In this document: positions 18,290 to 42,090 of the stretch, piece by piece
How the letters are laid out: each line of letters starts with the position of its first letter
How positions within the stretch are numbered: position 1 is the first letter of the stretch
The notes under the pieces: generated by a model
What the model was told of the DNA's origin: nothing
Databases searched by the model: none
The model's input: the letters and a program-made list of their open reading frames with translations, nothing else
Made by a program: the position numbers and the translations under genes
Virus record (IMG/VR): IMGVR_UViG_3300027743_000031
Coordinates: 1-61,575 of that record
Length of the DNA: 61,575 nucleotides
Direction: 5' to 3' (one strand)
DNA from: a virus
Taxonomy: Duplodnaviria > Caudoviricetes

Positions 18290-18318
18290 TTGCATTCCAG
18301 CCGCCCGGCGGTTAGGAT
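18290..18318 (+). promoter_or_regulatory. Putative major early promoter
   Basis: TTGCAT-N17-TAGGAT at the start of the plus-strand arm. Confidence 0.6.
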
Positions 18319-18324
18319 GGTGTC

Positions 18325-18788: not shown

Positions 18789-19283
18789 ATGAGCAAGTTC
18801 CGTCTCCCCCTGACCGAGGCGTCCCCCGCAGTTGCGGAGTTCGTCAAGGCCAACAAGCTGACGAAGCTGCCGACCAAGTCGTACGCGGCAACGCTCGACC
18901 ACCACCACCTCTACGAGGCCCGGGAGGCAACGGATCACACCGATCCGAAGTCCCAGGAGGCTGCGTTCCGGTGCTTGGCCGAGATCACGCCTCGCCCTTC
19001 CACCAAGGAAGTGGCGTTCAGCCTCGGCTTCCACGCCCCCAAGTACGTGGGCATGGCAGCCAACGCATGGGCCGCGTCGATCGGGTCGGATGCCCACAAG
19101 AAGTACCCCAACCGTGCGTCGAGCACGGTGCCGAAGGAGAAGGCCGTGCTCCCCAGCGCTCTGCTGGCCGAGCTTGGTTCGCTCCGGACGAAGAAGGACA
19201 TCCTGGCCGCGATCGAGGCGCTGGTGCCGCAGGCACCGGTCGTCGAGGTCGTCGAGGCCAAGGTCACTGCCGACGTCGCATGA
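18789..19283 (+). CDS. Hypothetical protein, first early gene
   Basis: GAAAGGA RBS before ATG 18789. Confidence 0.8.
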   Translation: MSKFRLPLTEASPAVAEFVKANKLTKLPTKSYAATLDHHHLYEAREATDHTDPKSQEAAFRCLAEITPRPSTKEVAFSLGFHAPKYVGMAANAWAASIGSDAHKKYPNRASSTVPKEKAVLPSALLAELGSLRTKKDILAAIEALVPQAPVVEVVEAKVTADVA

Positions 19284-19306
19284 CGGTCGGGCGGCTAGTA
19301 GCCGCG

Positions 19307-19370
19307 GCCCTGAGCGGGCTCACCCTCGCTCAGGGCGCTGCGTCACCCTGACGCTACGAAAGGAACCACC
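19307..19370 (+). repeat. Structured leader element, copy A (loop GCTCACCC)
   Basis: GCCCTGAGCGG/TCGCTCAGGGC, GCT linker, GCGTCA-CCC-TGACGC, GAAAGGAACC. Confidence 0.7.
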
Positions 19371-19688
19371 ATGAACACCATCATCGCCCTCGCTGTCGCT
19401 GCTTGCTCGGTCGTCGGATGCGCCCCCACACGGGATGCGGAGCCGCCAGCCAAGCCGGTCTGCGAGCCAGGCGAGGTCACCGTGTCGAGCGGTCAGCCGA
19501 CTCCGTGCGATCTCCAGTCCCCTGCCAACACGCTCACGCTCGTCTGGAATGCCGAGACCGAGGGCGAAGGCTGGGGCGGGGACGCCTCGGTGGCCAACGC
19601 CGAGGCCGCCGCGCTCGACGCTGGTTGCACGCCGTCGTGGATCAACGACGGCGACTACCGCCTCGTCGGTACGGGCTGCGACTTCTGA
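19371..19688 (+). CDS. Secreted or lipoprotein-like hypothetical protein
   Basis: Hydrophobic N-terminus ending VVGC; Cys-rich. Confidence 0.7.
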   Translation: MNTIIALAVAACSVVGCAPTRDAEPPAKPVCEPGEVTVSSGQPTPCDLQSPANTLTLVWNAETEGEGWGGDASVANAEAAALDAGCTPSWINDGDYRLVGTGCDF

Positions 19689-19701
19689 GCCACCCGGCTC
19701 G

Positions 19702-19774
19702 GCCCGGACGACCGTCGAACGTCGTCCGGGCGCTGCTCCCTCACACGGAGGGAGCTATCCCGAAAGGAACCAAC
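19702..19774 (+). repeat. Structured leader element, copy B (loop CGTCGAAC)
   Basis: GCCCGGACGAC/GTCGTCCGGGC, GCT linker, GCTCCCTC/GAGGGAGC, SD. Confidence 0.9.
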
Positions 19775-20008
19775 ATGCCAACCAAGACCACCATCACGAT
19801 GCCGACGCCGGTCGCGATCGAGGCAACTCGCTTCCCGACCGTCGCCGAGGCCACGGCTTTCGCCCACTCACAGGGCTGGGTCGTGTTCGTTCGTGGGGCC
19901 AAGAAGGCCAACGCCTTCGTCCCCGCGGAGACGCCGATGGCGCTCATCCTCGCAGGAGCCGAGGGCGATCGCTACTGGGCGGTCATGCGTCAGGTCACGC
20001 AGGGCTGA
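19775..20008 (+). CDS. Hypothetical protein
   Basis: Strong SD; MPTKTTIT start. Confidence 0.75.
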   Translation: MPTKTTITMPTPVAIEATRFPTVAEATAFAHSQGWVVFVRGAKKANAFVPAETPMALILAGAEGDRYWAVMRQVTQG

Positions 20009-20016
20009 GCCCTGCC

Positions 20017-20083
20017 GGTCGGGTCGCCGTCGAACGCGGCCCGACCGCTGCTCCCCCAGGAGCACGAACAGGAGGAACCAACC
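20017..20083 (+). repeat. Structured leader element, copy C (loop CGTCGAAC)
   Basis: GGTCGGGTCGC/GCGGCCCGACC, GCT linker, GCTCC/GGAGC, SD. Confidence 0.9.
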
Positions 20084-20584
20084 ATGAGCGAGCAATCGCG
20101 GCTCGACGCCGCGCGCCAGGACGACCCCGAGCTCAGCGCTCGGGTGCGTGCGAAGCGCGAGGCACGGCTGAACCCGACGCCCCCACCACGCCGCAAGACG
20201 CTGGCGCAGGTGCTGGCGGAGGAGGAGGCCGAGCGCGCCGGACAGCCGGTGTGGGTGGCCAGCCCGACAGCAGTCGGGGTGCCCAAGCTCGCACCGGGCC
20301 GGAAGCGCAAGAAGGCCAAGCAGCAACGCTTGGTCGGGTACGTCGAGGTCAGCGTCGAGGCCGAGCCTGTCAAGCGGCAGGCTGGGCGGAGGCGGATGCA
20401 GCAGGCCCCAGCGTGGAACGTCGCGCCGAACGAGGTGTCTCCGGACGCCAGGTTCGTGGCGATCTACGGGAGTCGGGGCGGGATGCTGACCGACAGCGAC
20501 AGGAAGCTGTGGCCGAAGCCCACGACCCGGATCATGGACCGTGACGGGCAGGTGCTGAAGCACAACGAGAGGGGTGAGCAGTGA
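20084..20584 (+). CDS. Basic hypothetical protein
   Basis: Strong SD; Arg/Lys-rich. Confidence 0.75.
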   Translation: MSEQSRLDAARQDDPELSARVRAKREARLNPTPPPRRKTLAQVLAEEEAERAGQPVWVASPTAVGVPKLAPGRKRKKAKQQRLVGYVEVSVEAEPVKRQAGRRRMQQAPAWNVAPNEVSPDARFVAIYGSRGGMLTDSDRKLWPKPTTRIMDRDGQVLKHNERGEQ

Positions 20585-20808
20585 CCATCGAGCACGTCGT
20601 CGCGACCAGCGTGGCGAGCGGCGATGTCCTCCGCGTGAACATGGCCCCGACCCCCAAGGACGACCCGCAGTATGAGTGGCGGACGGTCACTCAGGTGCGG
20701 ACGGGCACCGAGATCGTGGCGATCACGATCGAGGGTGCCGCAGGCGAACGGCAGAAGGTGGTCACGCACGTCGTGACGCTGGGCTGCCGGATGCAGGTGT
20801 GCCGCTGA
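20581..20808 (+). CDS. Hypothetical protein
   Basis: GTGA overlap with the upstream gene. Confidence 0.65.
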   Translation: MTIEHVVATSVASGDVLRVNMAPTPKDDPQYEWRTVTQVRTGTEIVAITIEGAAGERQKVVTHVVTLGCRMQVCR

Positions 20809-20815
20809 GCCACCG

Positions 20816-20886
20816 GGACCGGGCACCGTCGAACGTGCCCGGTCCGCTGTCCCCACCGCTGGGGACGACACGAAAGGAACCCAACC
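20816..20886 (+). repeat. Structured leader element, copy D (loop CGTCGAAC)
   Basis: GGACCGGGCAC/GTGCCCGGTCC, GCT linker, GTCCCCA/TGGGGAC, SD. Confidence 0.9.
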
Positions 20887-21168
20887 ATGACCACCCAACC
20901 CATCGACGAGAACGTCGTCAGCGCGCCCTGCGTGCAGACGATCGACCTCGATTGCGCCCCCGGAGCGACACGTCCCGGGGACCTGATCGACGGCGTGCTG
21001 GAGGGCACCGGACTCGTCCCCTTGGGCGAGCCGAGCAAGTTCTTCGGCAACTGGTGCTGGGCGTTCGACTGCCCCACTGAGGAGTGGAAAGAGCGCGTCC
21101 AGCCGATCATCATTCCCCGGATCAAGGCGCTCTATGCGACCGGCTTGATCCGCTACGGAAGCTGGTGA
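20887..21168 (+). CDS. Hypothetical protein
   Basis: Strong SD; IDLDCAPG...IRYGSW. Confidence 0.8.
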   Translation: MTTQPIDENVVSAPCVQTIDLDCAPGATRPGDLIDGVLEGTGLVPLGEPSKFFGNWCWAFDCPTEEWKERVQPIIIPRIKALYATGLIRYGSW

Positions 21169-21443
21169 GCGCCGTGAGTGACGTCGAGCAAGCACCGCGC
21201 GACACGCCGACGTGCGTGTGGGAGGAGTACCACGACGACATGTACCGGGAGTTCGCTCCCGAGCCGATCGTCGTGGAGTGCGAAGCCCCAGCGCAGTACG
21301 AGATCTCGTACTACGACGCGCACAACCCAGAAGGCAATGTGCTGTGCCGGGATGTGATGTGCGAGTCGCACTTCCTCCCGGCCATCCACGGACTGACCCG
21401 CGAGCGGAGCGTGAGCAGCATCACGTTCCGGAGGCTCGCATGA
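21165..21443 (+). CDS. Hypothetical protein
   Basis: GTGA overlap. Confidence 0.6.
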   Translation: MSAVSDVEQAPRDTPTCVWEEYHDDMYREFAPEPIVVECEAPAQYEISYYDAHNPEGNVLCRDVMCESHFLPAIHGLTRERSVSSITFRRLA

Positions 21444-21550
21444 ACCAGTGCGAGGCCCGCAACCCGAACGCTGGCGGTCGCTGCCAGCGCCCGGCGACGC
21501 AAGTCGTCAACGGGCAACACCTGTGCGACATTCACGCCCGACGCGCGTAA
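21440..21550 (+). CDS. Small Cys/His (Zn-finger-like) protein, 36 aa
   Basis: ATGA overlap; C...C...CDIH. Confidence 0.55.
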   Translation: MNQCEARNPNAGGRCQRPATQVVNGQHLCDIHARRA

Positions 21551-21556
21551 GCGTCG

Positions 21557-21622
21557 GCCCCGATCACGGTCGAACGTGGTCGGGGCGCTGCCCCACCCAG
21601 GGGCGAGAAGGAAGGAACCACC
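21557..21622 (+). repeat. Structured leader element, copy E (loop GGTCGAAC)
   Basis: GCCCCGATCAC/GTGGTCGGGGC, GCT linker, GCCCC/GGGGC, SD. Confidence 0.9.
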
Positions 21623-21823
21623 ATGACCGACAAGCACACGACCACCGTCGTGCAGTCGCGCCCTCCCTGCGACATCTGCGGGGAGCCAGCGCAGTACGAC
21701 GCCAAGACCAAGCACGGGCCGTGGGGCTGGCTGTGCCAGGCCGACTTCGACAAGCTCGGAGTCGGACTGGGGCTGGGCCTCGGCCAGAAGCTGATCGTCA
21801 CCGACGAGGGGGCGATCGCATGA
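21623..21823 (+). CDS. Small Zn-binding hypothetical protein
   Basis: CDIC...GPWGWLC...GLGLGLGQ. Confidence 0.75.
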   Translation: MTDKHTTTVVQSRPPCDICGEPAQYDAKTKHGPWGWLCQADFDKLGVGLGLGLGQKLIVTDEGAIA

Positions 21824-22098
21824 CACCAGCGTTCACGCTCCACAACTCGGGCGGGATCGTCAGCCTGGATGGGCCGGGGGGTCGCTACGACGCCCCGGTC
21901 CACGTCTGGGAGGCAGCGCTGGGACTGACCAGCGTCGAGCTTCTCGCGCGCTGGGACGACGTGTACCAGTGGCCCAACCGAGCCGACGAGGAAGACGTCG
22001 CACAGTTCCGTGCCGACTTCATCGCTCTGCCTCACGCGGCGCAAGCCGTGATGGTCGCGGAGTGGGAGGGCGACACCTTCACACCACCGAAGCAATGA
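21820..22098 (+). CDS. Hypothetical protein
   Basis: ATGA overlap. Confidence 0.6.
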   Translation: MTPAFTLHNSGGIVSLDGPGGRYDAPVHVWEAALGLTSVELLARWDDVYQWPNRADEEDVAQFRADFIALPHAAQAVMVAEWEGDTFTPPKQ

Positions 22099-22111
22099 GA
22101 AAGGAACCAAC

Positions 22112-22300
22112 ATGGACCGCACGTTGAAGGGGAGGCGGATCAGAGTCGACTACTGCTCTGATCCGCACACGCGACTGGACTCTGGCGAGGAAGGCACGAT
22201 CGATTTCGTGGACGACCTCGGCACGATCCACGTCACGTGGGACGGGGGGAGCAAGCTCGGCTTGGTCCCCGGCGAAGACAGGTGGACGGTGCTCACATGA
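22112..22300 (+). CDS. DUF4314-like protein
   Basis: GTIDFVDDLGTIHVTWDGGSKLGLVPGED motif. Confidence 0.8.
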   Translation: MDRTLKGRRIRVDYCSDPHTRLDSGEEGTIDFVDDLGTIHVTWDGGSKLGLVPGEDRWTVLT

Positions 22301-22809
22301 CCGCCACCGCGCCCAAGCCGTTCGAAGGGACGGACGAAGAGAGGGACCGCAACCGAGCCACCCATCAGTGGCGACAGGTCAGCGAGGACGGGGACTTCGC
22401 CTGTATGAACTGCGCCGCGGAGACGTGGCACGCAGCGGCGAACTACCCGTGCGGAGCGCCGGTGCCGAGGATGGAGTACCTGCCCGGTGTCGAGGGACCG
22501 GCCAGTTCTCCGTTGGAGGTGACGACCGACAGCGAGCCGAACGTCGAGATCCGCGACCTGAAGTCGGGGATGCTCTGCGTGTGCCTCTACACGGCGGTGT
22601 TCACGTCGTTGCAGCACGCGGTGATGGCCGCGGGGTCGATCCTGGAGAGTCCGGGGTGGGCCGGGGGGACGCGGCTGGCCGTGTTCGCTCGGGACCGGGA
22701 GTTCTATGAGCTCCTCGACCTCGACGAGTTCCAGCGGGTCGAACCGCACGCCGACATCAGCGATCGCATCGTCGCTCTGCTGATCAAGGACACGACACCG
22801 GACGAGTGA
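22297..22809 (+). CDS. Hypothetical protein
   Basis: ATGA overlap; CMNC. Confidence 0.65.
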   Translation: MTATAPKPFEGTDEERDRNRATHQWRQVSEDGDFACMNCAAETWHAAANYPCGAPVPRMEYLPGVEGPASSPLEVTTDSEPNVEIRDLKSGMLCVCLYTAVFTSLQHAVMAAGSILESPGWAGGTRLAVFARDREFYELLDLDEFQRVEPHADISDRIVALLIKDTTPDE

Positions 22810-22816
22810 TCGTCCC

Positions 22817-22877
22817 GCCCGTGCGAGCGTCACACCTCGCTCGGGCACGGCGCGCGCCGCGCGCAGAAAGGAACCAC
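22817..22877 (+). repeat. Structured leader element, copy F (loop CGTCACAC)
   Basis: GCCCGTGCGAG/CTCGCTCGGGC (one mismatch), ACG linker, GCGCGC/GCGCGC, SD. Confidence 0.8.
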
Positions 22878-23111
22878 ATGACCAAGCAACAACAGCGACC
22901 CGTCACAGAGTCGGCGCTGGCTTCCACTGCCAAGGCGGGCGACCGCTGGTGGCAGAGCGATGACTGTGTGCTCATCAACGAGGTCGTCGTCACCGACGAC
23001 GCCGTGAAGGTGAGCGGCTACATCGTCAAGGGCTGGGGAGCCAGTAAGAAGCTCCGTCACTGGTCGTTCATCCTCGACCAGATGTTGGAACTGGAGAGGG
23101 GAAGAGCATGA
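22878..23111 (+). CDS. Hypothetical protein
   Basis: Strong SD. Confidence 0.7.
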   Translation: MTKQQQRPVTESALASTAKAGDRWWQSDDCVLINEVVVTDDAVKVSGYIVKGWGASKKLRHWSFILDQMLELERGRA

Positions 23112-23410
23112 CCGACGAACAACCCGAGGTGTGGGTGCTCGTCAACCAGGGCTTGGCGAGTGCCGAGCCACGGCTGGAGCATCTGATCGGCACCTACCTG
23201 CTATCGAGCGACGTCAATGCGCGCGACGGCAGGGGCGCGGCGGAGTGGACCAGGGACTTGGACAAGGCGCAGAAGTTCCCGTCGTTCGCGCAAGCGTTCG
23301 ACGAGTGGCGCAGGCAGTCCGACGTCACACCGTTCCGTGACGACGGCTACCCCAACCGCCCGCTGACGGCGTTCAGCGTCGAGCCGAGGAGGGTCGATGC
23401 CACGTCGTAG
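23108..23410 (+). CDS. Hypothetical protein
   Basis: ATGA overlap; RDDGYPNRPLTAF. Confidence 0.7.
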   Translation: MTDEQPEVWVLVNQGLASAEPRLEHLIGTYLLSSDVNARDGRGAAEWTRDLDKAQKFPSFAQAFDEWRRQSDVTPFRDDGYPNRPLTAFSVEPRRVDATS

Positions 23411-23717
23411 GTACTACCGACCAAGCGGAGACTCGCACGCCGACTTCATGCGGTGCCGGACCTTCGGCCACATGATGGACGACATCCCGTCAGAGGACGA
23501 CACCGGCTACGGCGACCCGCTGTGGGTTCGGTGCATGCGCTGCGGGACCGAGCGCCACGACGGCATCGGCTCGTCGGGGCAGGTCGTCTATCGGCGGTAC
23601 GTCTACCCGGAGGGGTACAAGGACGCCTTCCGCCACGAGGGCGACGAGCCACCGTCGCGTTCGGACTACCGGATGCTGCTCTTGCAGCAGAAGATCCGTG
23701 AAGCGAGGCAGGCGTGA
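23397..23717 (+). CDS. Zn-ribbon hypothetical protein
   Basis: CRTFGH...CMRCGTER. Confidence 0.7.
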   Translation: MPRRRYYRPSGDSHADFMRCRTFGHMMDDIPSEDDTGYGDPLWVRCMRCGTERHDGIGSSGQVVYRRYVYPEGYKDAFRHEGDEPPSRSDYRMLLLQQKIREARQA

Positions 23718-24088
23718 TGAAGTGCCGCTTCGACCCGCACCACAAGACCGAGTTCCCGAACGCGGTCGCGCTCAGCCAGCACTACATCGCTGAGCACGGC
23801 GACGTGTACTCGCCGCCACAGCGGCTGCCGTGCCCGGAGTGCGGCAAGCCCGTGTCCGAGCACGGGATCAAGGAGCACATGAAGCGCCAGCACGGAGCGG
23901 CCTCTGCGGAGGTCGTGCCCGTGCAGGCGAAGAAGGCCCCGCCCCAGCGGGAGCCGTGGAATCCGAAGCAGGTCGTCGTGCCGGTGGTGCGCGAGCTCTT
24001 CGGGGAGCAAGTCCCGACAGACAGCTTGGGCGAGGTCATCGACTTCGCCGAGGCCACCCGAAGGCTCATCGAGAGGAGTCAGCAATGA
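23714..24088 (+). CDS. C2H2-type zinc-finger protein
   Basis: CPECGK...HMKRQH. Confidence 0.65.
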   Translation: MMKCRFDPHHKTEFPNAVALSQHYIAEHGDVYSPPQRLPCPECGKPVSEHGIKEHMKRQHGAASAEVVPVQAKKAPPQREPWNPKQVVVPVVRELFGEQVPTDSLGEVIDFAEATRRLIERSQQ

Positions 24089-24462
24089 AGGGCATCGCCA
24101 TCACGGCCATCCAGATCGCACCTGGAATGGTCGGCACCAACATCGACCCGTGGGAAGGCGAAGGCTTGCACGACCTGCAAGCCTTCGTCGGGGGCTTGAT
24201 CGAAGCCATCCCCACGGACGAACGAGTGACCCTGTGGGTCAACGAAGAGGGCAAGTACCAGGGCCTGCCGCGCAACCGCGTGGCCGAGAACGTGTGGCGT
24301 CTGTTCGACAGCTACGGCTGCCTCGCCAGCGGGGACTACATCGTGGGCAACATGCTCATCACCGGACCACCCGATGCGTTCGGTCGGACCACGGACGTGC
24401 CTGAGTTCCTGATCGAGGAGATCATGGAGGCTGCGGGGAAGCTCGATGACCCGCGACCGTGA
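24085..24462 (+). CDS. DUF3846-like protein
   Basis: LQAFVGGLIE...VNEEGK...LPRN...IVGNMLITG. Confidence 0.75.
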   Translation: MKGIAITAIQIAPGMVGTNIDPWEGEGLHDLQAFVGGLIEAIPTDERVTLWVNEEGKYQGLPRNRVAENVWRLFDSYGCLASGDYIVGNMLITGPPDAFGRTTDVPEFLIEEIMEAAGKLDDPRP

Positions 24463-25663
24463 CCGCAAGGCGTGGGCGGGCATCGGGCCTGCGGTGGACG
24501 CTCATCTCCATCGGTGGGACCAACTGCACCGAGTGCAGGAACCGGCCAAGCTGCTCTCGCGCTCGCTGACGGACAAGTCCATCGACAAGCGGGCGCTGGG
24601 GCGAGCGGTGAACGTGCCAATCCTTCAGTCGTGGGTGCAGTTCTCGATGAGCTACGGGATCGTCACGCAGAACGGCGTGCCGATGTTGATGGGCGCGGTC
24701 CATGAGGGGACCACGATCAGCGGCAAGGAGACGTTCGAAGCGGAGGCGGTCGCGCTGCCGATGGCGGGCAACTTCGCTCAGCGCGAGCACAGCATGCTCG
24801 ACCGGGCCGTGACCCACTACATCTCGGCCGAGATCGTCAACGAGATCGACCTGGCAGTGCAGAGCACGACGTGTGATCCGCTGTTCGAAACGGACCTGTT
24901 CACACCGGTCGGCTTCGCCGTTCTGGAGGAGCCGTTCTTGGTCAACGACCTCGACATGGACACGGGCCTGCCCACCGACAACATCTGGCTGGGCATCCGT
25001 GCGTTCGGGTGGCAGCGCATCGAGCGCATCGGTCACGCCGACGACAACCAGGCGCTGCCGGGGATCGAACTGTTCCTCTACACGACGCCCGAGGACTACG
25101 AGTCCATCTACATCGAGTCGTTGATCGACGCGGGGCACGAACCACCGGACCATCAGAACCCGGTCAGCAACTTCCTCATCATCGAGGTCGTGCCGTGGCG
25201 GTTCGGCTCGCAGTGGGACATCAACGACGAGTCACCGGAGTACGTGGCCGGGTTCTTGCCGTCGCCGGTCGCGCACCAGCGCAAGTGGTTCCACACGTTC
25301 ATGCGCTTCTGCTGGCAGGAGATCATCCATCACCAGCGGCACGCTCCCGAGCGTGCAGAGCGGCGGGAGTGGGAGCGGTTGGCGAAGAAGAAGGAACTGC
25401 TCGACTACACGACGCTGCGTCTGCGGCGCTACGTCGATCCCGAGCACGTCGCCTACGAGGGCGGCGGTGTCCCGCTCACACACCGGGTGAAGGTGCGCGC
25501 GCACTGGACGCGGCAGTACTACCCGACGATGGGTCCGGCGCGGTTGCCGGACGGACGAATGAACCCAGACAGTCATCGCCTGATCTGGATCGAGAGCTAC
25601 TGGAAAGGCCCCGAAGACGGGCCTCTCGGTGCAATGCACGCGGCCACGTCGGTCGTGCGCTGA
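24446..25663 (+). CDS. Hypothetical protein (405 aa) with C-terminal VRAHW...WIESYWKGP domain
   Basis: Long ORF in the operon; function unknown. Confidence 0.8.
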   Translation: MTRDRDRKAWAGIGPAVDAHLHRWDQLHRVQEPAKLLSRSLTDKSIDKRALGRAVNVPILQSWVQFSMSYGIVTQNGVPMLMGAVHEGTTISGKETFEAEAVALPMAGNFAQREHSMLDRAVTHYISAEIVNEIDLAVQSTTCDPLFETDLFTPVGFAVLEEPFLVNDLDMDTGLPTDNIWLGIRAFGWQRIERIGHADDNQALPGIELFLYTTPEDYESIYIESLIDAGHEPPDHQNPVSNFLIIEVVPWRFGSQWDINDESPEYVAGFLPSPVAHQRKWFHTFMRFCWQEIIHHQRHAPERAERREWERLAKKKELLDYTTLRLRRYVDPEHVAYEGGGVPLTHRVKVRAHWTRQYYPTMGPARLPDGRMNPDSHRLIWIESYWKGPEDGPLGAMHAATSVVR

Positions 25664-25680
25664 ACAAGGAAGGAACCAAC

Positions 25681-25944
25681 ATGCCCGACTCGACAACTCT
25701 CGGGACGACCTACGACGAGCGGCTCAACGCGATGATCGATCTGCTCGACGGATGGGTGCTCATCAGCGATGCGATTTCGCGTCGCCTGCACCCGACAGGG
25801 ACCGTGCATCGGCGTCACCCAATCTGGCTGACGCCGATGTGCAACCACAGCAATGGACTCAACGAGTTCCACATCGGCACGTTCCACGAGCTCGCCTCAT
25901 GCGAGCACCGCTGCGCTCTCTGTGAGAGGGCGGTTGGGTGGTGA
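25681..25944 (+). CDS. Hypothetical protein
   Basis: GAAGGAACC SD; C-terminal Cys cluster. Confidence 0.65.
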   Translation: MPDSTTLGTTYDERLNAMIDLLDGWVLISDAISRRLHPTGTVHRRHPIWLTPMCNHSNGLNEFHIGTFHELASCEHRCALCERAVGW

Positions 25945-25960
25945 TGGGCTGACCAAGATC

Positions 25961-26139
25961 GCCGGGTGAGGAGCGGGAATTCCTCCACCCGGCAGCCCGC
26001 ACAGGAGCGGACACCTGTGCGGGCATTGCCTGGCGGGAACCAGGCGGTGCGACGGCGGATGTCGCACCGGGTTGGGCGGGGATCGAGTATCCCGCCCATC
26101 CACCGCGCCCACAGTGGGCGCTCTTGAAAGGAACCAGAC
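25961..26139 (+). ncRNA. Six-hairpin intergenic array (GGA-loop hairpins plus leader element copy G)
   Basis: Four abutting hairpins with loops GCGGGAAT, AGCGGACA, CGGGAA and GGCGGAT, then a long stem, ACC linker, hairpin and SD. Confidence 0.55.
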
Positions 26140-26784
26140 ATGACCGAAGAACACAACACCGAAGCCGTGATCGAGTCGCTCAGAGTTCTCCAGTTCGGAG
26201 GCGACGAGCATCTCGGGTTCACGACAACACACGAGGGTGGGGCATCACTGACCCACGCCGAACTGTGCTCGTACCTCTACTCGGCGTCGTGCGCGCTGCG
26301 TCACTTCACCTCCACCGAGGAGGAGTTGCGCCGTGAGCTCGGGTCAACGCGCGAGTCGTTGCGGCTGGCGCAGATCGACGTGGCCGCCAAGAGCGACGAG
26401 ATCCTCGCGGCTCGCACCGAACTGGCGGAGTTCCGTGACGACCACGCGCTGGTCGTTGATTCTCAGGCGGTGATGAACACAAACCTGTTCGAAGCGCGGC
26501 GGGACTTGGGGATCATTGCCGAGGCGCTCCGCGAGGAAGCCACGAAGCGGGAGTGGTGCTCGGAGTACGAGGACTTCGTCAACCGCGTCAACCACATGAC
26601 GACGGGCAATCACCTCGTCCCGTGCTGGGTCAACCGGAGCCTGACGTTCACCGTGCGGGTGAACTTCACCGCTTCGCGCGATCAGGTCGGGACGTTGGAG
26701 GAAGAACTCAGGGAGCAGATGCGCGATCTGAGCCTGGACGGCGTTGAAGACCTCAACGTCGATGTCGCAGTCACCAGGGGCTGA
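26140..26784 (+). CDS. Coiled-coil hypothetical protein
   Basis: Strong SD; EATKREWCSEYE. Confidence 0.75.
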   Translation: MTEEHNTEAVIESLRVLQFGGDEHLGFTTTHEGGASLTHAELCSYLYSASCALRHFTSTEEELRRELGSTRESLRLAQIDVAAKSDEILAARTELAEFRDDHALVVDSQAVMNTNLFEARRDLGIIAEALREEATKREWCSEYEDFVNRVNHMTTGNHLVPCWVNRSLTFTVRVNFTASRDQVGTLEEELREQMRDLSLDGVEDLNVDVAVTRG

Positions 26785-26796
26785 GAAAGGAAGGCC

Positions 26797-27198
26797 ATGA
26801 ACGAGTCAGTGGTGTCGATAGCCGACGCCGCCGCTGCTCTCGGGGTGAGCCGACAACGCGTCGAGAAGCTCATCAGCGAGGGGAAGTTGGTGGCGGTCGA
26901 GCACCATCGGCACCGATACGTGACTCTTGCGTCCATTGCTGCACGACAGCAGGGGCCGCCCCCCACGGAGCGCCTGACGACCCGGCAAGTAGCCGAGAAG
27001 TTGGGCGTTGCGGCGGCGACCGTGAACACCTACAGAAAGAAGGCGCTGCTCCCTGGAGCAGTGAAGGAAGGGAACACGTGGACGTTCCCGCCTGACGTGC
27101 TTGATGGGTGGGACAGGCGCAAGCCCGTCGTCGCCTTGCACGCACGGCAGCAGCCGTACAACCAAACCCGCTTGCGAAGGCTACGCCCCAAGGCGTAG
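26797..27198 (+). CDS. Tandem excisionase/MerR-like HTH DNA-binding protein
   Basis: Two HTH units: SIADAAAALGVSRQRV and TTRQVAEKLGVAAATV. Confidence 0.8.
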   Translation: MNESVVSIADAAAALGVSRQRVEKLISEGKLVAVEHHRHRYVTLASIAARQQGPPPTERLTTRQVAEKLGVAAATVNTYRKKALLPGAVKEGNTWTFPPDVLDGWDRRKPVVALHARQQPYNQTRLRRLRPKA

Positions 27199-27206
27199 TC
27201 CTTGCC

Positions 27207-27283
27207 GCCCGCGTCACCGTCGAACGTGACGTGGGCACTGGTCGCTCCGATCCGCGGTGCGACCGAACTGGAAAGGAACCATC
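27207..27283 (+). repeat. Structured leader element, copy H (loop CGTCGAAC)
   Basis: GCCCGCGTCAC/GTGACGTGGGC, ACT linker, GGTCGCTCCG/CGGTGCGACC, SD. Confidence 0.9.
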
Positions 27284-28777
27284 ATGGCCCGAACCAACAA
27301 GGCGGAGGACCCGGACAGTCCCGCCGCGATCCGAGAGTCGCAGATGCTGCTGCTCGCGGAGATCGGAGGGAAGCTGCTTGGCGAAGAGGACATCACGTTC
27401 TCGGGCACCAAGTTCGTCCTTCCGGCAAAGCTGGACCTCGATCAGTCGATCGAGTTCCTGGAGCAGCGTCGGAACGATGAGCAGACGGTCAACCGCTTCG
27501 TGAAGACGTTTCCCTACCGTCCGCTGGATGGCGCTCGCGCCACGATGCAGGCGATCAAGGAGGCGTTCGGCTTCACGCTGGGCAAGACCATCTACTCGTT
27601 CTGGGGCAACACCCCGCCCACCTTCATCGACTGCCGCTACGGCCCTGGCCGTGACGACACCGAGCAGGTGCCGTGGGGGGCAATGCAGATCCCCGGCTTT
27701 GAGAACACGAGCGTCTACCTCGGGGCGGAACACCACCCCGAGTTGGGCAACTGCTTCAACATCAGAGTCGAGTCGCCCCGCAAGTACAGGTTCCACATCG
27801 AAGGGCTGTTCCGGCTCATCGCCAAGAACCTGGAGGAGCGGAGCATCTACCGGGGCAAGGCGCTCGACGGTGCGGCCGAGCCGAACTTCATCGACACCAC
27901 ATCGGTGGCGACGGAGGACGTCGTCTACACCAGCGAGGTCACGGCGCAGTTGGAGGCCAACGTGTGGTCTCCGATCAAGCACGCCGAGGCGTTGACCAAG
28001 CTCGGCCAGCCCGGGAAGCGGACGGTCCTCTTCGAAGGTCCGTACGGCACCGGCAAGTCGCTGGCCGCGCTGCTCACCGCGCAAGTTGCGGTGGCCAACG
28101 GGTGGACGTTCTTGCTCTGCCGTCCTGGCAAGGACGACTTGAACGTGACGATGCAGACGGCGCGCATGTACCAGCCCGCCGTCGTGTTCTTCGAAGATCT
28201 CGACACCGTTGCTCAGCCGGGCAGCAGTGACGACATCTCGCAGATCCTCGATATGTTCGACGGCATCACCACCAAGGGGCTGCAGATGCTCCTGGTGCTG
28301 ACGACGAACCACGCCGAGCGCATCCACAAGGGGATGGTGCGGCCTGGCCGTCTCGACGCGGTGATCCACGTCGGTGAGATGGACCGGGCCGGTGTCGAGC
28401 GACTGACACGCCGAGTGATCGGTGATGCGCTGGCGTTCGACATCGACTTCGACAAGGTGTTCGTCGCGATGGATGGGTACATGCCCGCCTTCGTGAAGGA
28501 AGCCCTGGACCGTGCGATCCGCTACTCCGTCTCGTTGAACGACGGCGCGGTTGGTCGCATCGACACCGATGCTCTGGTGTTGGCGGCGTCTGGTCTGCGT
28601 GACCAGTTGCGGCTGATGATGGGCGCATCGGACGTCGAGGTCGAGCCGACGCTGGACCGGGTGTTCTCCCGCGCCATCACCAAGGCGGCGACGAACGTGT
28701 TGTACGACACGGCCGTGGCCGATTTGGACGATGGCTACCAGCGCTGGCAGTTGCAGAAGAAGGAGCCCCAGGACTGA
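27284..28777 (+). CDS. AAA+ ATPase (classic clade)
   Basis: Walker A GPYGTGKS, Walker B VVFFEDLD, TTN sensor, RPGRLD arginine finger. Confidence 0.9.
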   Translation: MARTNKAEDPDSPAAIRESQMLLLAEIGGKLLGEEDITFSGTKFVLPAKLDLDQSIEFLEQRRNDEQTVNRFVKTFPYRPLDGARATMQAIKEAFGFTLGKTIYSFWGNTPPTFIDCRYGPGRDDTEQVPWGAMQIPGFENTSVYLGAEHHPELGNCFNIRVESPRKYRFHIEGLFRLIAKNLEERSIYRGKALDGAAEPNFIDTTSVATEDVVYTSEVTAQLEANVWSPIKHAEALTKLGQPGKRTVLFEGPYGTGKSLAALLTAQVAVANGWTFLLCRPGKDDLNVTMQTARMYQPAVVFFEDLDTVAQPGSSDDISQILDMFDGITTKGLQMLLVLTTNHAERIHKGMVRPGRLDAVIHVGEMDRAGVERLTRRVIGDALAFDIDFDKVFVAMDGYMPAFVKEALDRAIRYSVSLNDGAVGRIDTDALVLAASGLRDQLRLMMGASDVEVEPTLDRVFSRAITKAATNVLYDTAVADLDDGYQRWQLQKKEPQD

Positions 28778-28784
28778 TTGCCCC

Positions 28785-28836
28785 GCCCGCTCGCCCCTGT
28801 CATGGGGGCGGGCGGGCACCTACAGAAAGGAACCAC
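28785..28836 (+). repeat. Degenerate leader element, copy I
   Basis: GCCCGCTCGCC/GGCGGGCGGGC around CCTGTCATGGG, ACC, then SD; second hairpin absent. Confidence 0.55.
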
Positions 28837-29064
28837 ATGACGACCGAAGAGAATTCAGAGAGGGGCGACAGTTGGGAGCAGCAATTGTTCGACGCTGCCA
28901 AGGCGCGACGCGCGGTGAAGCTCGACACGGGCGAGGAAGTGAAGCTCGTCTATGCGCCGCACCCTGGCTACGACCCACGAATGGCGCGTGTTCGCGACGG
29001 CCGAGACGGCCGCGGGAGGGTGCGGTCGATCGACCCCAAGAGCATCGTGGAGATCCTGCCATGA
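28837..29064 (+). CDS. Hypothetical protein
   Basis: Strong SD. Confidence 0.7.
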   Translation: MTTEENSERGDSWEQQLFDAAKARRAVKLDTGEEVKLVYAPHPGYDPRMARVRDGRDGRGRVRSIDPKSIVEILP

Positions 29065-36610: not shown

Positions 36611-36751
36611 TGCTGCTCACACGTGAGGACTGGGAGCGACTCGGCCGCATGGTCGCTCGCCTGGAAGGGGAGTACCCCGAGGACGCAGCGCTGCTGCTGA
36701 AGATCATCAACCAAGCCGCCCCCGAGGGTGCGGACAACTGAAGGGAACCAC

Positions 36752-37003
36752 ATGACATTCAGGATCGAGAAGATCGTCGCCTTCACGTCGATTGACGAGG
36801 ACGACGAGGAGGGGGTGTGCGCGTTCCTCGCGCCGAACGGCACATGGATGCCGCTGATCGGCGCGGACGAGGAGCGCATCACCAGCCTTCGCATCAAGGC
36901 CCAGGAGGTCGCGACCATGACCCAGCGGCCGGTGCAACTGCGCCGGTTCACCGAGTCGGAAGTGATCGAAACCATCGAGCCGGAAGCGTGGGACCAGTCG
37001 TGA
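36752..37003 (+). CDS. Hypothetical protein
   Basis: SD; EGVCAF...WMPLIGAD. Confidence 0.7.
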   Translation: MTFRIEKIVAFTSIDEDDEEGVCAFLAPNGTWMPLIGADEERITSLRIKAQEVATMTQRPVQLRRFTESEVIETIEPEAWDQS

Positions 37004-37461
37004 AGTACCACATCGACAGCCTCGTCCCGCACCTCCACAACGTGATCGAGGAGTACGACGGCAAGATCCCGTGGAAGGCGATCGGCGTGTTCCCTGACGA
37101 GAACTCAGCCGGTCCGCCCGAGGCGTGGTGGAACAGCTTCGTCTACACCGTGGGGCTGACGCCGGACCTCGACCTGTGGATGCCCTGCACGTCGATCGAG
37201 GGGCGGTACATGGGGCCGCAGTTGACGTGCGAGATTCTGAACATCCTCGGCGCGGCGTTCCGTCAGGCTGCCATCGGGCCGCACGACGACATCATCGTGC
37301 CGCTCGGCGTACCGGACGGTGCCGACGTGGACTGCGTGGTGTGGGTGGGGCCGCACGGGGAGCCGTCGCGCTACCGGCAGGCGAACTTCTCCGATGCCGA
37401 TTGGGTCGTGCCGATCGCCTGGACGAGTGGATTGGGGTGGCCTGATGAAGACGAGGAGTGA
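37000..37461 (+). CDS. Hypothetical protein
   Basis: GTGA overlap; FVYTVGL. Confidence 0.6.
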   Translation: MKYHIDSLVPHLHNVIEEYDGKIPWKAIGVFPDENSAGPPEAWWNSFVYTVGLTPDLDLWMPCTSIEGRYMGPQLTCEILNILGAAFRQAAIGPHDDIIVPLGVPDGADVDCVVWVGPHGEPSRYRQANFSDADWVVPIAWTSGLGWPDEDEE

Positions 37462-37867
37462 GCCGTGCTCGGCGTGCCCGTACAAGCGGAGCACGCCGAG
37501 CGGCGTGTGGTCGCATCACGAGTACGAGAAGCTGCGCGGCTACGACGAGCCGACCGCGGACCAGCCGTACGCGACGTTCGCCTGTCACGCCACGCCGGAC
37601 CACAACTGCCACGGCTGGGTGGCGGTCCACATGAACCGCGGTCACGACCGCGAACTGATCGCGCTGCGCTTGTGGCCGACCGACTTCGTTCCCGACAAGG
37701 ACGACCTCCGCTTCTACGAGAGCGGCAACGAGGCGGCTGACTACGGCCAGTTGCCCAAGGACATCGCAGCCGACTCGACCATCGAGCGGCTGCTGCGGAA
37801 GAACCCACGCCTCCGCGAGCGTGACCCGTGGGAGGAAGAGAGGATGCACGATGAGCTCGGATGGTGA
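37445..37867 (+). CDS. DUF6283-like Cys-rich protein
   Basis: PCSACPYKR...SGVW...EYEKL...YD...FACH...CHGW. Confidence 0.7.
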   Translation: MKTRSEPCSACPYKRSTPSGVWSHHEYEKLRGYDEPTADQPYATFACHATPDHNCHGWVAVHMNRGHDRELIALRLWPTDFVPDKDDLRFYESGNEAADYGQLPKDIAADSTIERLLRKNPRLRERDPWEEERMHDELGW

Positions 37868-38150
37868 CATCCCACTCGTCATCTGCATGACCGTGGCACT
37901 GATGCCCGAGGCGTCAGTGCCTGCGCGACCGGCGTTCTGCAATGACTGCGGAGAGCCGGTGTGGGTGGCGAACTCGACGCCGCCCGCGATCCCGGTCTGC
38001 GTGTGGTGCGGGGAGAAGTACATGGGGCCGGACTCGGAGATGATCTTCACCGAGGAACAGCGCGCCGACCTGAACGAGCACGGTGTCACGGATGAGGAGA
38101 TCGAACAGATCAAGAGCCGTGCCAAGCGGATGTTCGGCAAGAGGGTATGA
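37851..38150 (+). CDS. Zn-ribbon hypothetical protein
   Basis: CNDC...CVWC. Confidence 0.6.
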   Translation: MSSDGDIPLVICMTVALMPEASVPARPAFCNDCGEPVWVANSTPPAIPVCVWCGEKYMGPDSEMIFTEEQRADLNEHGVTDEEIEQIKSRAKRMFGKRV

Positions 38151-38449
38151 GCGAGAGGGACATCACCAAGAAGGAGGCGCACGCGGTCGCGCAGTCCCAG
38201 GGGAAGATCCGGGAGATGCTGGCGCGGGCGATGCCGTGCGAAGTGTGCGGTGGCAAGGTGCTCACGCCGGGGCGCACGCGGCACTTCATGTGCGACCCCG
38301 ACAGCCTGGTCGGGCGGGCGTGTACGTGCCCGCCGAATTGTTCACTGACCGCGTGGGGAAATGGTCCGGCAGAGTGCGATAGAAATTGCGTGCCGTGTCG
38401 GATCAATCGCGGCAAGTCGCTCGTTGAGAAACGCGCGAAAGGTGGTTGA
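38147..38449 (+). CDS. Cys-rich hypothetical protein
   Basis: ATGA overlap; several CxxC motifs. Confidence 0.6.
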   Translation: MSERDITKKEAHAVAQSQGKIREMLARAMPCEVCGGKVLTPGRTRHFMCDPDSLVGRACTCPPNCSLTAWGNGPAECDRNCVPCRINRGKSLVEKRAKGG

Positions 38450-38667
38450 GCGGCTGGGGCCGTTCATCCAATGAGGCATGTCGAGTGGAGGTGGTTCGGT
38501 AGCGCACCTGTCATGGGGTGCGCTGTTCGACACCGGCCTTTGCGTTGTTGGTTCCGCGACTCCACTCGGCAGCCATCCTCCCTGGGTATGCACCCCGCCC
38601 AGCGGCGGGTGTAGTAACATACGCCTTGTGGCGGGAGATCCGACCTGCCTGACAAGGAGAACCAACA

Positions 38668-39150
38668 ATGACCATTGCCGAAGAGCTTGCCGCGCTCGAC
38701 GACCCCACCGAGGGGAGCATGGCAGAACTGGTGACACGACTGCGCGACGCACGCGCTATCGCCGCTCAGTTCAACGAGTTATCGACTGTTATCGAATTGG
38801 AAATCGCCGCCCGCATGGAGGGCGACAACCTGACGGTCCCGCACGTCGGACATATTCGCCGTGTCCCACAGAAGCGGAGCCAGTGGAAGGACGAGGATTC
38901 GGCCGAGCGCTTTCGCGACTACGTGGCCGAAACGGTGGTCCGCGTTGTTGCGCTTGATCTTGCCTCCGGTGAAGTTGACATCACCAAGCGCAACATCGCG
39001 CGAGCCACCATCGGCGAACTCTACGACATCATCCCGTCCTTCTCGGACGTCAAGGCAAGGGGAAAGCGCATGGGCATCGACGTGTCGGAATTCCGCACGG
39101 TCAGTTACGTCGACAAGATCGAGTTCGACCTGGATGCGGAGGCGCAATGA
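38668..39150 (+). CDS. Hypothetical protein
   Basis: AAGGAG RBS. Confidence 0.75.
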   Translation: MTIAEELAALDDPTEGSMAELVTRLRDARAIAAQFNELSTVIELEIAARMEGDNLTVPHVGHIRRVPQKRSQWKDEDSAERFRDYVAETVVRVVALDLASGEVDITKRNIARATIGELYDIIPSFSDVKARGKRMGIDVSEFRTVSYVDKIEFDLDAEAQ

Positions 39151-40094: not shown

Positions 40095-40104
40095 AAGGAA
40101 CCAC

Positions 40105-41935: not shown

Positions 41936-42090
41936 CCTGGACAGGTGCAACAACGTGGCGATCGTGCTCGTCCACTTCCGCGGCCAGCACACGCCGAGGC
42001 CGTACTGCCGGTATCACGCATTCGACAAGAAGGGAAACATCCGCTGGAAGGCGGTTCACATCGGGCATATTGAGCGCATCGGGAGGTGAC

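Follow-up and report, generated by a model that had tools for sequence, protein, structure and literature searches.

The question raised by this locus is why the longer gaps between phage early genes carry a repeated arrangement of hairpins, and what those hairpins might do. The window, the whole stretch of DNA that we analysed, is the complete genome of an uncultured siphovirus (61,575 bp, 66% GC). Its early arm, on the + strand, has 23 gene calls and 22 junctions.

Placement and composition of the modules

All nine early-arm gaps of at least 59 nt contain the element, as a tandem two-hairpin module in eight and with a single hairpin in one, and all modules lie on the coding strand (Table 1). 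The order in the tandem modules is often a small hairpin at the previous stop codon, then a first hairpin (H1), a 3-nt linker, a second hairpin (H2), GAAAGGAACC and the ATG. The three early-arm gaps of 12-17 nt hold a GAAAGGAAC-like motif only, and at the remaining 10 of the 22 junctions, nine of them overlaps and one a 5-nt gap, both hairpins and motif are absent.

The initial annotation had placed nine copies between 19307 and 28785, and on re-examination all nine positions were correct, as were the linkers (GCT, ACT, ACG, ACC), the second hairpin, the Shine-Dalgarno-like GAAAGGAACC and the ATG. The two copies described as degenerate are so, that at 26070 having a T.T mismatch and that at 28785 no second hairpin. 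The small hairpin, said to lie at the previous stop in most copies, overlaps the stop codon in six of the eight tandem modules (B, C, D, E, F and H). The nine stop-to-start stretches folded with z-scores of -1.7 to -5.3, seven of them equalled by none of 200 shuffles, and in all nine folds the segment from motif to AUG was essentially unpaired.

Table 1. Hairpin modules, motif-only junctions and a candidate promoter in the window (z, fold z-score; E, covariance-model E-value)
Feature	Span (strand)	Upstream hairpin	H1 and loop	Linker	H2	Motif	ATG	Remarks
Module A	19291..19373 (+)	19291-19305	19307-19336; GCTCACCC at 19318	GCT	19340-19354	GAAAGGAACC 19358-19367	19371	z -3.7
Module B	19686..19777 (+)	19686-19701, at stop codon	19702-19731; CGTCGAAC 19713-19720	GCT 19732-19734	19735-19755	GAAAGGAACC 19762-19771	19775	z -5.3; E 3.8e-09 (training copy)
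Module C	19999..20086 (+)	19999-20015, TGA in loop	20017-20046; CGTCGAAC at 20028; one G.U	GCT 20047-20049	20050-20063	AGGAGGAACC 20070-20079	20084	z -3.5
Module D	20816..20889 (+)		20816-20845; CGTCGAAC at 20827	GCT	20849-20866	GAAAGGAACC 20872-20881	20887	z -3.3
Module E	21539..21625 (+)	21539-21556, TAA in loop	21557-21586; GGTCGAAC at 21568; one G.U	GCT	21590-21604	GGAAGGAACC 21610-21619	21623	z -2.9
Module F	22800..22880 (+)	22800-22815, TGA in loop	22817-22846; CGTCACAC at 22828; one T.T mismatch	ACG	22850-22864	GAAAGGAACC 22866-22875	22878	z -1.7; 12/200 shuffles fold equally well
Module G (diverged)	26070..26142 (+)	extra hairpins 25995-26069	26070-26101; ATCGAGTA; one T.T mismatch	ACC	26105-26121	GAAAGGAACC 26126-26135	26140	z -4.1; E 0.17
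Module H	27177..27286 (+)	27177-27203, over TAG stop	27207-27236; CGTCGAAC at 27218; one G.U	ACT	27240-27264	GAAAGGAACC 27271-27280	27284	z -4.2; AAA ATPase gene
Module I	28785..28839 (+)		28785-28817; single hairpin, 13-14 bp			GAAAGGAACC 28825-28834	28837	z -3.8
Motif-only junction	22099..22114 (+)					GAAAGGAACC 22099-22108	22112	gap 13 nt
Motif-only junction	25668..25683 (+)					GGAAGGAACC	25681	gap 17 nt
Motif-only junction	26785..26799 (+)					GAAAGGAAGG	26797	gap 12 nt
Second + strand arm	36740..44183 (+)					four GAAAGGAACC-type motifs (36740, 40093, 42573, 44174)		without tandem hairpins
Possible early promoter	18291..18319 (+)							TTGCAT-17 nt-TAGGAT; read by eye, absent from the consensus scan's list

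The same architecture occurs in five related uncultured records, and an automated scan gave 38 modules. Each gene block has one module; the window has nine of them and G001 roughly 15. The module-bearing records showed no DNA similarity to GenBank phages. Module H has orthologous modules in the relatives, and the hairpin of module I is homologous in sequence in G001, L123 and L125.

Covariation, strand and the conserved loop

Seven close copies of H1 in the window have stems of 11 bp and loops of 8 nt. Their stems had been described as differing widely yet staying paired, and this is what the alignment showed: 76 of 77 cells were paired, and nine of the 11 pairs showed compensatory change on both sides. 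The covariation score was reached by none of 500 shuffles, and slid registers paired 29-43% of cells. Among 22 copies from five records, 239 of 242 cells paired (a figure that is partly by construction, as the cross-genome hairpins were found by a hairpin search), all 11 pairs were compensatory, and again none of 500 shuffles matched the score. In the module that precedes the orthologous ATPase gene, stem sequences are wholly different across the window, L123, L124, G001 and G002, and the order of hairpin, linker, hairpin and motif is the same in all five. H1 is GC-rich with 10-13 paired positions, 11 or 12 in 32 of the 38 modules.

The stems also carry a strand signal. The non-Watson-Crick pairs of copies C, E and H had been called G-U, and each of these copies has one, read as G.T on the + strand. 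Isolated internal non-Watson-Crick positions comprised 22 G.U, 5 A.C and 6 others (binomial p 0.0015). A covariance model of the seven window copies, run on both strands, found nothing further at E < 0.01 except the copies' own reverse strands, and no copies in the three minus-strand arms. Covariation, wobble bias and the single orientation agree with the earlier claim of selection on the sense RNA, and support the view that the modules form a genuine family whose structure is conserved on the sense strand. The T.T mismatch of copy F had gone unmentioned in the initial annotation.

The same data bear on whether the hairpins act in DNA, as single-strand hairpins or short homologies for cassette exchange or as a REP-like mobile repeat, with RNA structure a by-product. 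The early genes are mosaic, with orthologues reordered in the window, G001 and G002, each beside a module, and in the comparison of the window with L123 a homology break lies at 26150, just past motif and ATG. The suggestion that modules bound swappable cassettes fits this gene order and break, as far as sequence comparison goes. However, any mosaic phage is expected to have intergenic breakpoints, the stems that would supply the homology are the least conserved part, and the excess of sense-strand G.U over A.C is unexpected for duplex sites or symmetric cruciforms. No transposase-like gene was found among the scanned proteins (30 Pfam and 20 PHROG queries, several small ORFs lying outside the scan). 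Action in DNA thus seems very unlikely.

REP elements are GC-rich multi-copy hairpins after stop codons that can protect the upstream message, and such intercistronic stabilisers can set differential expression within operons; REP stems are conserved and depend on a RAYT transposase. The window hairpins are likewise multi-copy, GC-rich, placed after stop codons and free of a U-tract, but their stems vary, loop and linker are the conserved parts, and a start-codon motif is attached. With unconserved stems and no transposase family among the scanned proteins, we did not class them as REP.

Within any one genome the loop varies less than the stem. Across the 22 aligned copies all 11 stem pairs vary, and the only invariant positions lie in loop and linker. 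The loop CGTCGAAC was found in the four window copies for which it had been reported, but it is not a family signature. The loop words differ by phage (CGUCGAAC in the window; UUCGCUG, CUCACC, CUCGUAC and UUUCGCC in the relatives), and what is shared is a U-C-R core within loops of 6-9 nt, kept in 34 of 38 modules, and a purine-C straight after H1, which 37 of the 38 modules have, compared with 5 of 28 control hairpins. In the 22 aligned copies the linker C never varies, and the U and C of the loop vary little if at all. The stem foot is also conserved within genomes, as GCCC in the window, GCCCGG in G005 and GGACGG..CCGCCC, with a fixed A.C mismatch, in G001.

The element had not been recognised in the initial annotation, and no Rfam family matched it. 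Against the window there were two matches at E up to 1, both distant from the region and below gathering scores, and against seven related loci none at gathering score. The hairpin module seems undescribed.

The start-codon motif and its known relatives

Allowing at most one mismatch, GAAAGGAACC occurs at 15 sites in the window, all on the + strand, where 1.75 are expected and none of 100 shuffles reached 15; G001 has 22 forward and 2 reverse sites (control 0). The motif stands 3-5 nt ahead of the ATG at all 12 early-arm junctions with a gap of at least 12 nt. It is A-rich, with a 7-nt Shine-Dalgarno core and conserved extra bases, ACC after GAAAGGA and in G001 also ACAAC before, complementarity being judged on the general actinobacterial 16S 3' end.

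Actinophage start-associated motifs have reportedly been known since 2011. Start-associated sequences (SAS) are described from mycobacteriophages of cluster K and from Microbacterium phages of cluster EF (PMC3203893, PMC7302621) as asymmetric elements of 10-13 nt a few bases before start codons, multi-copy and in one orientation, with about 10-19 copies per genome of one 13-bp motif, nearly all facing the same way; they stand before genes that follow larger-than-usual gaps, and their conservation goes past the bases that pair with 16S rRNA. Papers of 2024-2025 still call their function unknown. The window motif is similar in being multi-copy, in one orientation, in the ribosome-binding position and before genes behind large gaps. 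It has GAAAGGA..CC in common with the EF consensus GGGAAAGGACCCC, but as (C)GAAAGGAACC it does not match the cluster K consensus GGGATAGGAGCCC. Judged by sequence, the GAAAGGAACC part is SAS-like in kind, and so already known, and lies outside the cluster K motif. It differs in its coupling to two covarying hairpins, and what seems new is this tie between a SAS-like motif and a covarying two-hairpin RNA with two invariant single-stranded positions.

In clusters K and EF some SAS have a second element, ESAS, just upstream, described as an imperfect 17-bp inverted repeat with half-sites conserved in sequence; Pope et al. found little to favour an RNA hairpin in ESAS. More recently, those of Adephagia have been interpreted as promoters of the SigA -35/-10 type that carry an operator-like repeat. 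On our own reading a -35/-10 pair is also suggested by the AnnaSerena sites around GTAGAG. The window hairpins resemble ESAS as inverted repeats directly upstream of a SAS-like motif, but their stems change by covariation, conservation resides in the loop and there is no -35/-10 pair. We rejected an ESAS identity on the unconserved half-sites (all 11 pairs compensatory) and the lack of SigA-like hexamers at threshold in 17000-31500; by eye, no TANNNT lies between H1 and the motif in the window modules.

A proposed model of intercistronic punctuation

The best explanation, which we hold tentatively and at somewhat less than an even chance, is that the modules are intercistronic punctuation acting in sense-strand RNA, within a single long early transcript, where a cut in the linker leaves hairpin-protected ends and an open ribosome-binding site. 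We infer the single transcript, the cut and the stabilisation from the observed structure, covariation, strand, placement and invariant positions; the ruler-like constancy of H1 length and the purine-C after H1 also speak for this model. Each module lies between blocks of genes that are coupled in translation. The unpaired linker would be cut at the conserved purine-C, either by a host endonuclease of the RNase E type or by a dedicated factor that the loop guides. H1 would then close the 3' end of the upstream message against 3' exonucleases, and H2, as a 5'-terminal hairpin with 1-4 free nt, would protect the downstream message. The two hairpins would sequester GC-rich flanks and leave GAAAGGAACC and the ATG unpaired, so that each block could be translated independently of its neighbours. 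The mechanism is concrete and can be tested, as it predicts a cut at the linker C and protected ends on both products, and six phage records supply natural variants. Insulation and stabilisation of each block, if real, would explain how mosaic early regions go on working after gene swaps, and the modules would then be ready-made operon parts for high-GC bacteria.

Mycobacterial RNase E is reported (PMC10641625) to cut single-stranded RNA just 5' of a cytidine with purines preferred upstream, at sites enriched in intergenic regions. The fit is only partial, because the enzyme prefers U at +3 and the linkers have U at +2 or none.

Processing of phage early RNA has a precedent in T7, where RNase III cleavage turns one long transcript into stable hairpin-ended messages. 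The T7 sites are long irregular duplexes with an internal loop, cut within the stem. The window also has several hairpins between early genes, but these are two separate, short and perfect hairpins (11-13 and 5-10 bp) on either side of a single-stranded linker of 2-5 nt, with a conserved loop.

GC-rich hairpins of 11-13 bp just past stop codons could alternatively be tail-less (I-shaped) intrinsic terminators or attenuators that set a descending transcription gradient, the remainder being an ordinary strong ribosome-binding site. Such hairpins have been proposed as mycobacterial terminators, although in the accessible literature tail-less termination in actinobacteria is disputed, and mycobacterial RNA polymerase is reported to require a U-tract in the part of PMC3993855 available. 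Across the 38 modules no more than 3 T occur in the 9 nt that follow H1 (mean 1.2), so that the hairpins have the GC-rich stem of a canonical terminator but lack its 7-9 nt U-tract; none of the modules is among the eight terminator-like sites called. A sigma-70-like promoter scan of 17000-31500 found no site at threshold, and the by-eye candidate in Table 1 lies within the 900-nt non-coding stretch preceding the first early gene. With no promoter after any module, all genes beyond an efficient terminator would fall silent, the conserved ATPase gene among them. Termination would also need no conserved loop, fixed linker or second hairpin, and we consider this reading unlikely.

Punctuation of a long transcript does not account for every feature on its own. 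A plain stabiliser needs no conserved loop, so the U-C-R core and phage-specific words imply an additional loop reader. H1 could instead be the operator of a sequence-specific RNA-binding protein, phage or host, that reads loop and stem foot without any cut and coordinates translation, or makes RNA polymerase termination-resistant, across the early blocks. The loop conservation exceeding that of the stem, the near-invariant U and C, a phage-specific word of the sort that a co-evolving reader would give, the conserved stem foot and the constant stem length would all suit such a protein. Three proteins recur in every module-bearing record, an AAA ATPase, a double helix-turn-helix protein and a small Cys/His protein lacking any known RNA-binding family, and no candidate binder emerged. 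The two products put forward in the initial annotation do not track the element, that of 20084..20584 having a homologue in none of the five relatives and that of 18789..19283 in two.

A comparable format is that of the lambda nut boxB, which is read by its loop, and the HK022 put RNA, which has two adjacent hairpins, both in early phage RNA. The window modules are similarly small hairpins in an early region, in loop or paired-hairpin format. However, nut and put antitermination signals are promoter-proximal, and one or two sites per operon suffice, whereas the modules come one per gene block, with loops of 6-9 nt. An operator also leaves the invariant purine-C linker and H2 unexplained. We regard it as possible but doubtful; a loop-specific reader, if there is one, would be a new RNA-protein recognition pair.

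A more speculative extension, which we think improbable, is that the common scaffold (stem of 11-12 bp, U-C-R loop core, purine-C linker) carries a loop word particular to each phage lineage, for a dedicated co-evolving reader, either a Cas6-like, hairpin-specific phage endoribonuclease or binder or a host MazF-type RNase specific for single strands. Reading of this kind would amount to programmable punctuation of polycistronic phage RNA and would at the same time mark gene blocks open to exchange. With a MazF-type reader, the hairpins might be processing sites or decoys against an abortive-infection toxin. The loops of G001 contain UCGCU, the pentad reported for MazF-mt7.

Placement and structure of the early-arm modules

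The early arm of the window contains 23 called genes, each verified as one open frame, and thus 22 junctions. All nine gaps of 59-195 nt hold an element, eight of them a tandem hairpin pair and one, module I at 28785, a single hairpin. The three gaps of 12-17 nt carry a GAAAGGAAC-like motif alone. The remaining ten junctions (nine in which the genes overlap by 1-17 nt and one with a gap of 5 nt) have neither hairpins nor motif and carry ordinary GGAG-type upstream sequences. This placement indicates that the modules mark off blocks of between one and six genes whose translation is coupled.

The coordinates and sequences that the initial annotation gave for the copies were all correct on re-inspection. 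A small hairpin lies over the upstream stop codon in six of the eight tandem copies. It is followed by a first hairpin, H1 (11 pairs, 8-nt loop), a linker of three unpaired bases and a second hairpin, H2 (5-10 pairs, 3-5 nt loop), which leads into an A-rich spacer, GAAAGGAACC, 3-5 nt and the ATG. The 195-nt gap before module G, a diverged copy, has three extra strong hairpins in 25945-26069 (25995-26024, 26023-26050 and 26045-26069).

The seven close copies of H1 align without gaps. Standard pairs fill 76 of the 77 cells of this alignment, with both-sided changes at 9 of the 11 pairs, and 500 column shuffles all scored lower in covariation. When the 3' arm was shifted by 1-3 columns, only 29-43% of the cells paired. 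We built a covariance model from these seven copies, as the initial annotation had suggested, and ran it unfiltered on both strands of the window. Its only matches at E <1e-6 were the training copies; on the + strand these were followed, at E 0.17, by the diverged copy at 26068 and, at E 0.18, by a hairpin close by at 25993, the first of the three in the gap before module G. The minus-strand arms gave no match.

Folding of the nine stop-to-start stretches produced z-scores of -1.7 to -5.3, and for seven of the nine none of 200 dinucleotide shuffles folded as well. The stretch from the motif to the AUG was essentially unpaired in all nine folds. The motif itself, at up to one mismatch, occurs at 15 sites in the window, on the + strand only, against 1.75 expected; 0 of 100 shuffles reached 15.

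Distribution and conservation of the family

Searching IMG/VR with the exact composite module pattern gave no matches, while the motif-plus-ATG pattern gave at least 118 stretches with one match each, which is uninformative. Relatives were sought with the AAA ATPase of the window (27284..28777) and with the major head protein. The ATPase query found one IMG/VR contig, G001 (45,160 bp, 81% identity), and nine further metagenome loci, not counting L131, which is the same contig as G001. The early arm of G001 has about 15 tandem modules, and GAAAGGAAC occurs 22 times forward and twice in reverse in this contig, with none in the backwards-read control. Among the metagenome loci, L123, with an ATPase 85% identical, has two modules and L124 has one.

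The head-protein query gave 151 relatives, of which 80 were kept, and we studied the whole records of five, picked by length among the best twelve. Motif and hairpins were both present in two of these five, G002 (60,723 bp, with terminal repeats) and G005, with head-protein identities of 59% and 53%, respectively. The hairpins are absent from G003, G004 and G006, which belong to the same capsid clade; the motif is also absent from G003 and G004, and G006 has two forward copies. These three records have essentially structural genes alone in common with the window, and their non-structural genes are entirely different. Four cultured relatives (Arthrobacter phage Rizwana and Microbacterium phages Phinky, AluminumJesus and Fransoyer; one Tankvirus, two Squashvirus and one unclassified) gave a best model match of E 0.03, and in three of them the motif was about as frequent as in the backwards-read control. 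The ATPase locus of Gordonia phage Fryberger has no module and is organised differently. This pattern of presence and absence shows that hairpins and motif travel together, with one particular non-structural gene set.

An automated scan of seven records for a hairpin of at least 10 pairs, a second hairpin 2-5 nt on, then GGA and a start codon, returned 66 candidates. We count as modules the 38 with a motif like the start-associated sequences (SAS) of actinophages, and used the other 28, mostly within genes, as controls. The scan missed four modules seen by eye (window C, G001 16306, G002rc 57833 and G005rc 20742). Purine then C are the first two bases after H1 in 37/38 modules and 5/28 controls, and U-C-R lies in or touches the loop in 34/38 modules and 6/28 controls. 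H1 has 11 or 12 paired positions in 32 of the 38 (range 10-13), a count made on modules alone. An earlier count on 25 modules found U-C-R in 22 of the H1 loops against 3 of the H2 loops; its background is 39/167 in other long hairpins of the window and G001, and 29% in random 9-mers. Around this core the loop words are phage-specific, each phage having its own set.

Loop words of H1 in the module-bearing phages
Record	Loop word(s)	Remark
Window	CGUCGAAC	
L123	CGUCGCAC and UGUCGAAG	
L124	ACUCGACAC	
G001	UUCGCU(G) and CUCACC	
G002	CUCGUAC	linker ACGA
G005	UUUCGCC	

Copies of H1 of exactly 30 nt (window 7, G001 6, L123 2, G005 6, G002 1) form a gap-free alignment of 22 rows, with 239 of 242 cells paired and compensatory change at all 11 pairs, although the pairing percentage is partly by construction because each row had been picked as a hairpin. 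Two columns alone are invariant in it, the loop C and the linker C; at least 90% of the rows keep the loop U. The real evidence is that stems of such varied sequence occur where position, loop and linker do not change. The module before the ATPase gene (window H, L123 3593, L124 1569, G001 26267, G002rc 59196) has unrelated stems in an identical order of parts. The modules are a real multi-copy family of sense-strand RNA elements in six uncultured phage records. In them an SAS-like start motif is joined to a pair of covarying hairpins, and two of the unpaired positions are invariant.

Sense-strand RNA and a possible role in message processing

The initial annotation had argued from sense-strand G-U pairs that selection acts on RNA. 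We counted isolated non-Watson-Crick stem positions flanked by Watson-Crick pairs, under a strand-symmetric rule, in 25 modules, two of them atypical (L123 5262 and L125 1264). The argument was borne out: G.U made up 22 positions, A.C 5 and other combinations 6 (binomial p 0.0015). This bias of G.U over A.C would be absent at a duplex DNA site or in a symmetric cruciform; a hairpin formed by the + strand of DNA rather than by RNA is, strictly speaking, still conceivable. All five A.C cases share a single stem position, in G001 stems of the form GGACGG..CCGCCC and their L124 counterpart, and are therefore a conserved feature in themselves. This fixed irregularity looks like a recognition feature.

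Other readings of the hairpins were rejected. A canonical terminator would have a U-tract, which is absent after H1 in the 38 modules (at most three T in the next 9 nt, counted in modules alone). As to promoters, no sigma-70-like site was found in 17000-31500 of the window, where the sole plausible early promoter, picked out by eye, is at 18291-18319. The initial annotation had not recognised the element as a described motif, and Rfam searches of the window and related loci gave nothing relevant, so that the hairpins match no known RNA family there.

What the modules do we infer from their form. A linker of 2-5 unpaired bases, beginning purine-C (37/38 modules), stands between two stable hairpins, an anatomy that suggests cutting and protection. 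Mycobacterial RNase E makes its cut in single-stranded RNA just 5' of a cytidine, preferring upstream purines and U at +3, and its sites are enriched in intergenic regions (PMC10641625); its substrate requirements are also the topic of a 2026 preprint. The linker has the two strongest of these preferences and lacks the U at +3. A cut in the linker would leave the upstream message with H1 as its 3'-terminal hairpin, and the downstream one would start, after 1-4 free bases, with H2 as its 5'-terminal hairpin. Such a hairpin-ended arrangement stabilises processed transcripts in E. coli messages. The hairpins also keep the A-rich start region unpaired in the folds, which would allow each block to be translated independently of its neighbours.

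Cutting and protection do not account for the conserved loop. The loop core, the phage-specific words, a stem of nearly constant length and its conserved foot look like the marks of a specific reader that would measure the distance from loop to linker.

The start motif has published counterparts. Searching the literature with the motif letters returned unrelated papers only, and no paper on such a hairpin family was found in the literature outside subscription journals and supplements. Cluster K phages have 11-19 copies of GGGATAGGAGCCC before genes (Pope et al. 2011, PMC3203893); this SAS is conserved beyond its rRNA-pairing bases, and its authors give it no known function. Ten copies of GGGAAAGGACCCC are reported from cluster EF (Jacobs-Sera et al. 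2020, PMC7302621), and GAAAGGA..CC is common to this SAS and the window motif. The extended sequences (ESAS), the upstream partners of the SAS in those phages, differ from the window hairpins in that their half-sites are sequence-conserved and, according to Pope et al. (PMC3203893), there is little support for RNA pairing. The Adephagia ESAS is now interpreted as a SigA-type promoter that contains an operator-like repeat (PMC11373665), and the roles of these sequences are still called unverified in a survey of 188 cluster K genomes from 2025 (PMC12699233). From the likeness to SAS and the different nature of ESAS, we regard the window motif as SAS-like and its hairpins as a new kind of partner. 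The modules belong with two known kinds of element: the expression signals that recur between actinophage genes, and processing hairpins between cistrons.

In Microbacterium phage AnnaSerena (MH271292), GTAGAG sites match the published cluster EF ESAS. In the stretch fetched, a GTAGCG/AGTAGC word lies about 17-18 nt upstream of TAGAGT at 4/5 of these sites, which in our own reading look like -35/-10 pairs.

Candidate readers, possible gene exchange and the phage genome

Three proteins occur in every module-bearing record: the ATPase, the double helix-turn-helix protein just upstream and a small Cys/His protein. No candidate reader of the loop emerged. The conserved pattern of the Cys/His protein suggests that it may bind zinc; it matches no known family and the Atlas gives no function. 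We considered it as a lambda-N-like peptide and rejected this, as its arginine-rich N-terminus is not conserved in the homologues. The helix-turn-helix protein may regulate the early arm. ATPase relatives at the identity given in the table occur, among others, in N4-like Erwinia, Pseudomonas and Klebsiella podophages, in Gordonia Ronaldovirus and in Mycobacteroides prophages. The 405-aa early protein adjoins, in the ESM Atlas, clusters named AcrVA2-like anti-CRISPR (feature score 0.97, structure TM 0.59-0.60), and we rejected it as an RNA reader since it looks AcrVA2-like and not RNA-related.

Features of the early arm and of one H1 subclass
Feature	Position	Strand	Remarks
Possible early promoter, TTGCAT-17-TAGGAT	18291-18319		by eye; in 17880-18788, before the long GC-rich leader of the first early gene
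Small Cys/His protein	23397-23717	+	pattern C..GH..W...RC..RC...Y.P.GY; homologues in G001, G002, G005, L123
405-aa early protein	24446-25663	+	Pfam: no match at E <=0.01; homologues in L123, G002, G005
133-aa protein, two HTH_17/MerR-type domains	26797-27198	+	directly upstream of ATPase gene; same in 5/5 relatives compared
AAA ATPase behind module H	27284-28777	+	relatives 33-40% identical in very different phages
H1 subclass, GGACGG start, CCGCCC end	G001 (L003 13171-15108; L001 9924-9953), L124 1569-1599		A.C in 5/5

UCGCU occurs in the loops of G001; a review (PMC5408214) reports this pentad for the toxin MazF-mt7, with the G retained in cleavable sites. This match is a lead only. By eye, three further ideas about the loop failed. 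It is a partial match only to a tRNA T-loop or anticodon loop, it could pair with the start motif as GGUUC in G001 and not in the window, and the CUCACC class alone fits an anti-Shine-Dalgarno mimic.

The relatives have a mosaic gene order. In G001 and G002 the orthologues of 21623..21823 and 22112..22300 are found in other contexts, each adjoining a module, and similarity between the window and L123 stops at 26150, just past the motif and ATG of module G, to resume within the ATPase gene. Both observations would fit exchange at module boundaries, and any intergenic region is likewise a likely breakpoint.

The window is an entire record, a single 61,575-bp contig of 66% G+C, that codes for the siphovirus proteins tape measure, major tail, major head, portal, large terminase and a MuF-protease fusion. 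Near and distant DNA searches with the early region found no similarity to GenBank phages. The portal shares about 38% identity with its counterparts in Arthrobacter and Microbacterium phages, and the window has the same odd gene order as Microbacterium cluster EG, for which Jacobs-Sera et al. (PMC7302621) describe a fused MuF-protease and a major tail gene before the connector genes. The relatives and the composition make an actinobacterium the likely host.

Genes run leftward in three arms (1-17.9, 30.8-35.6 and 49.7-61.6 kb) and rightward in two, the early arm with the modules (18.8-30.8 kb) and 36.0-49.7 kb. Between divergent arms, 17880-18788 is about 900 nt without a convincing gene. The matching region of G001 has a 15-nt word tandemly repeated just before its first motif.
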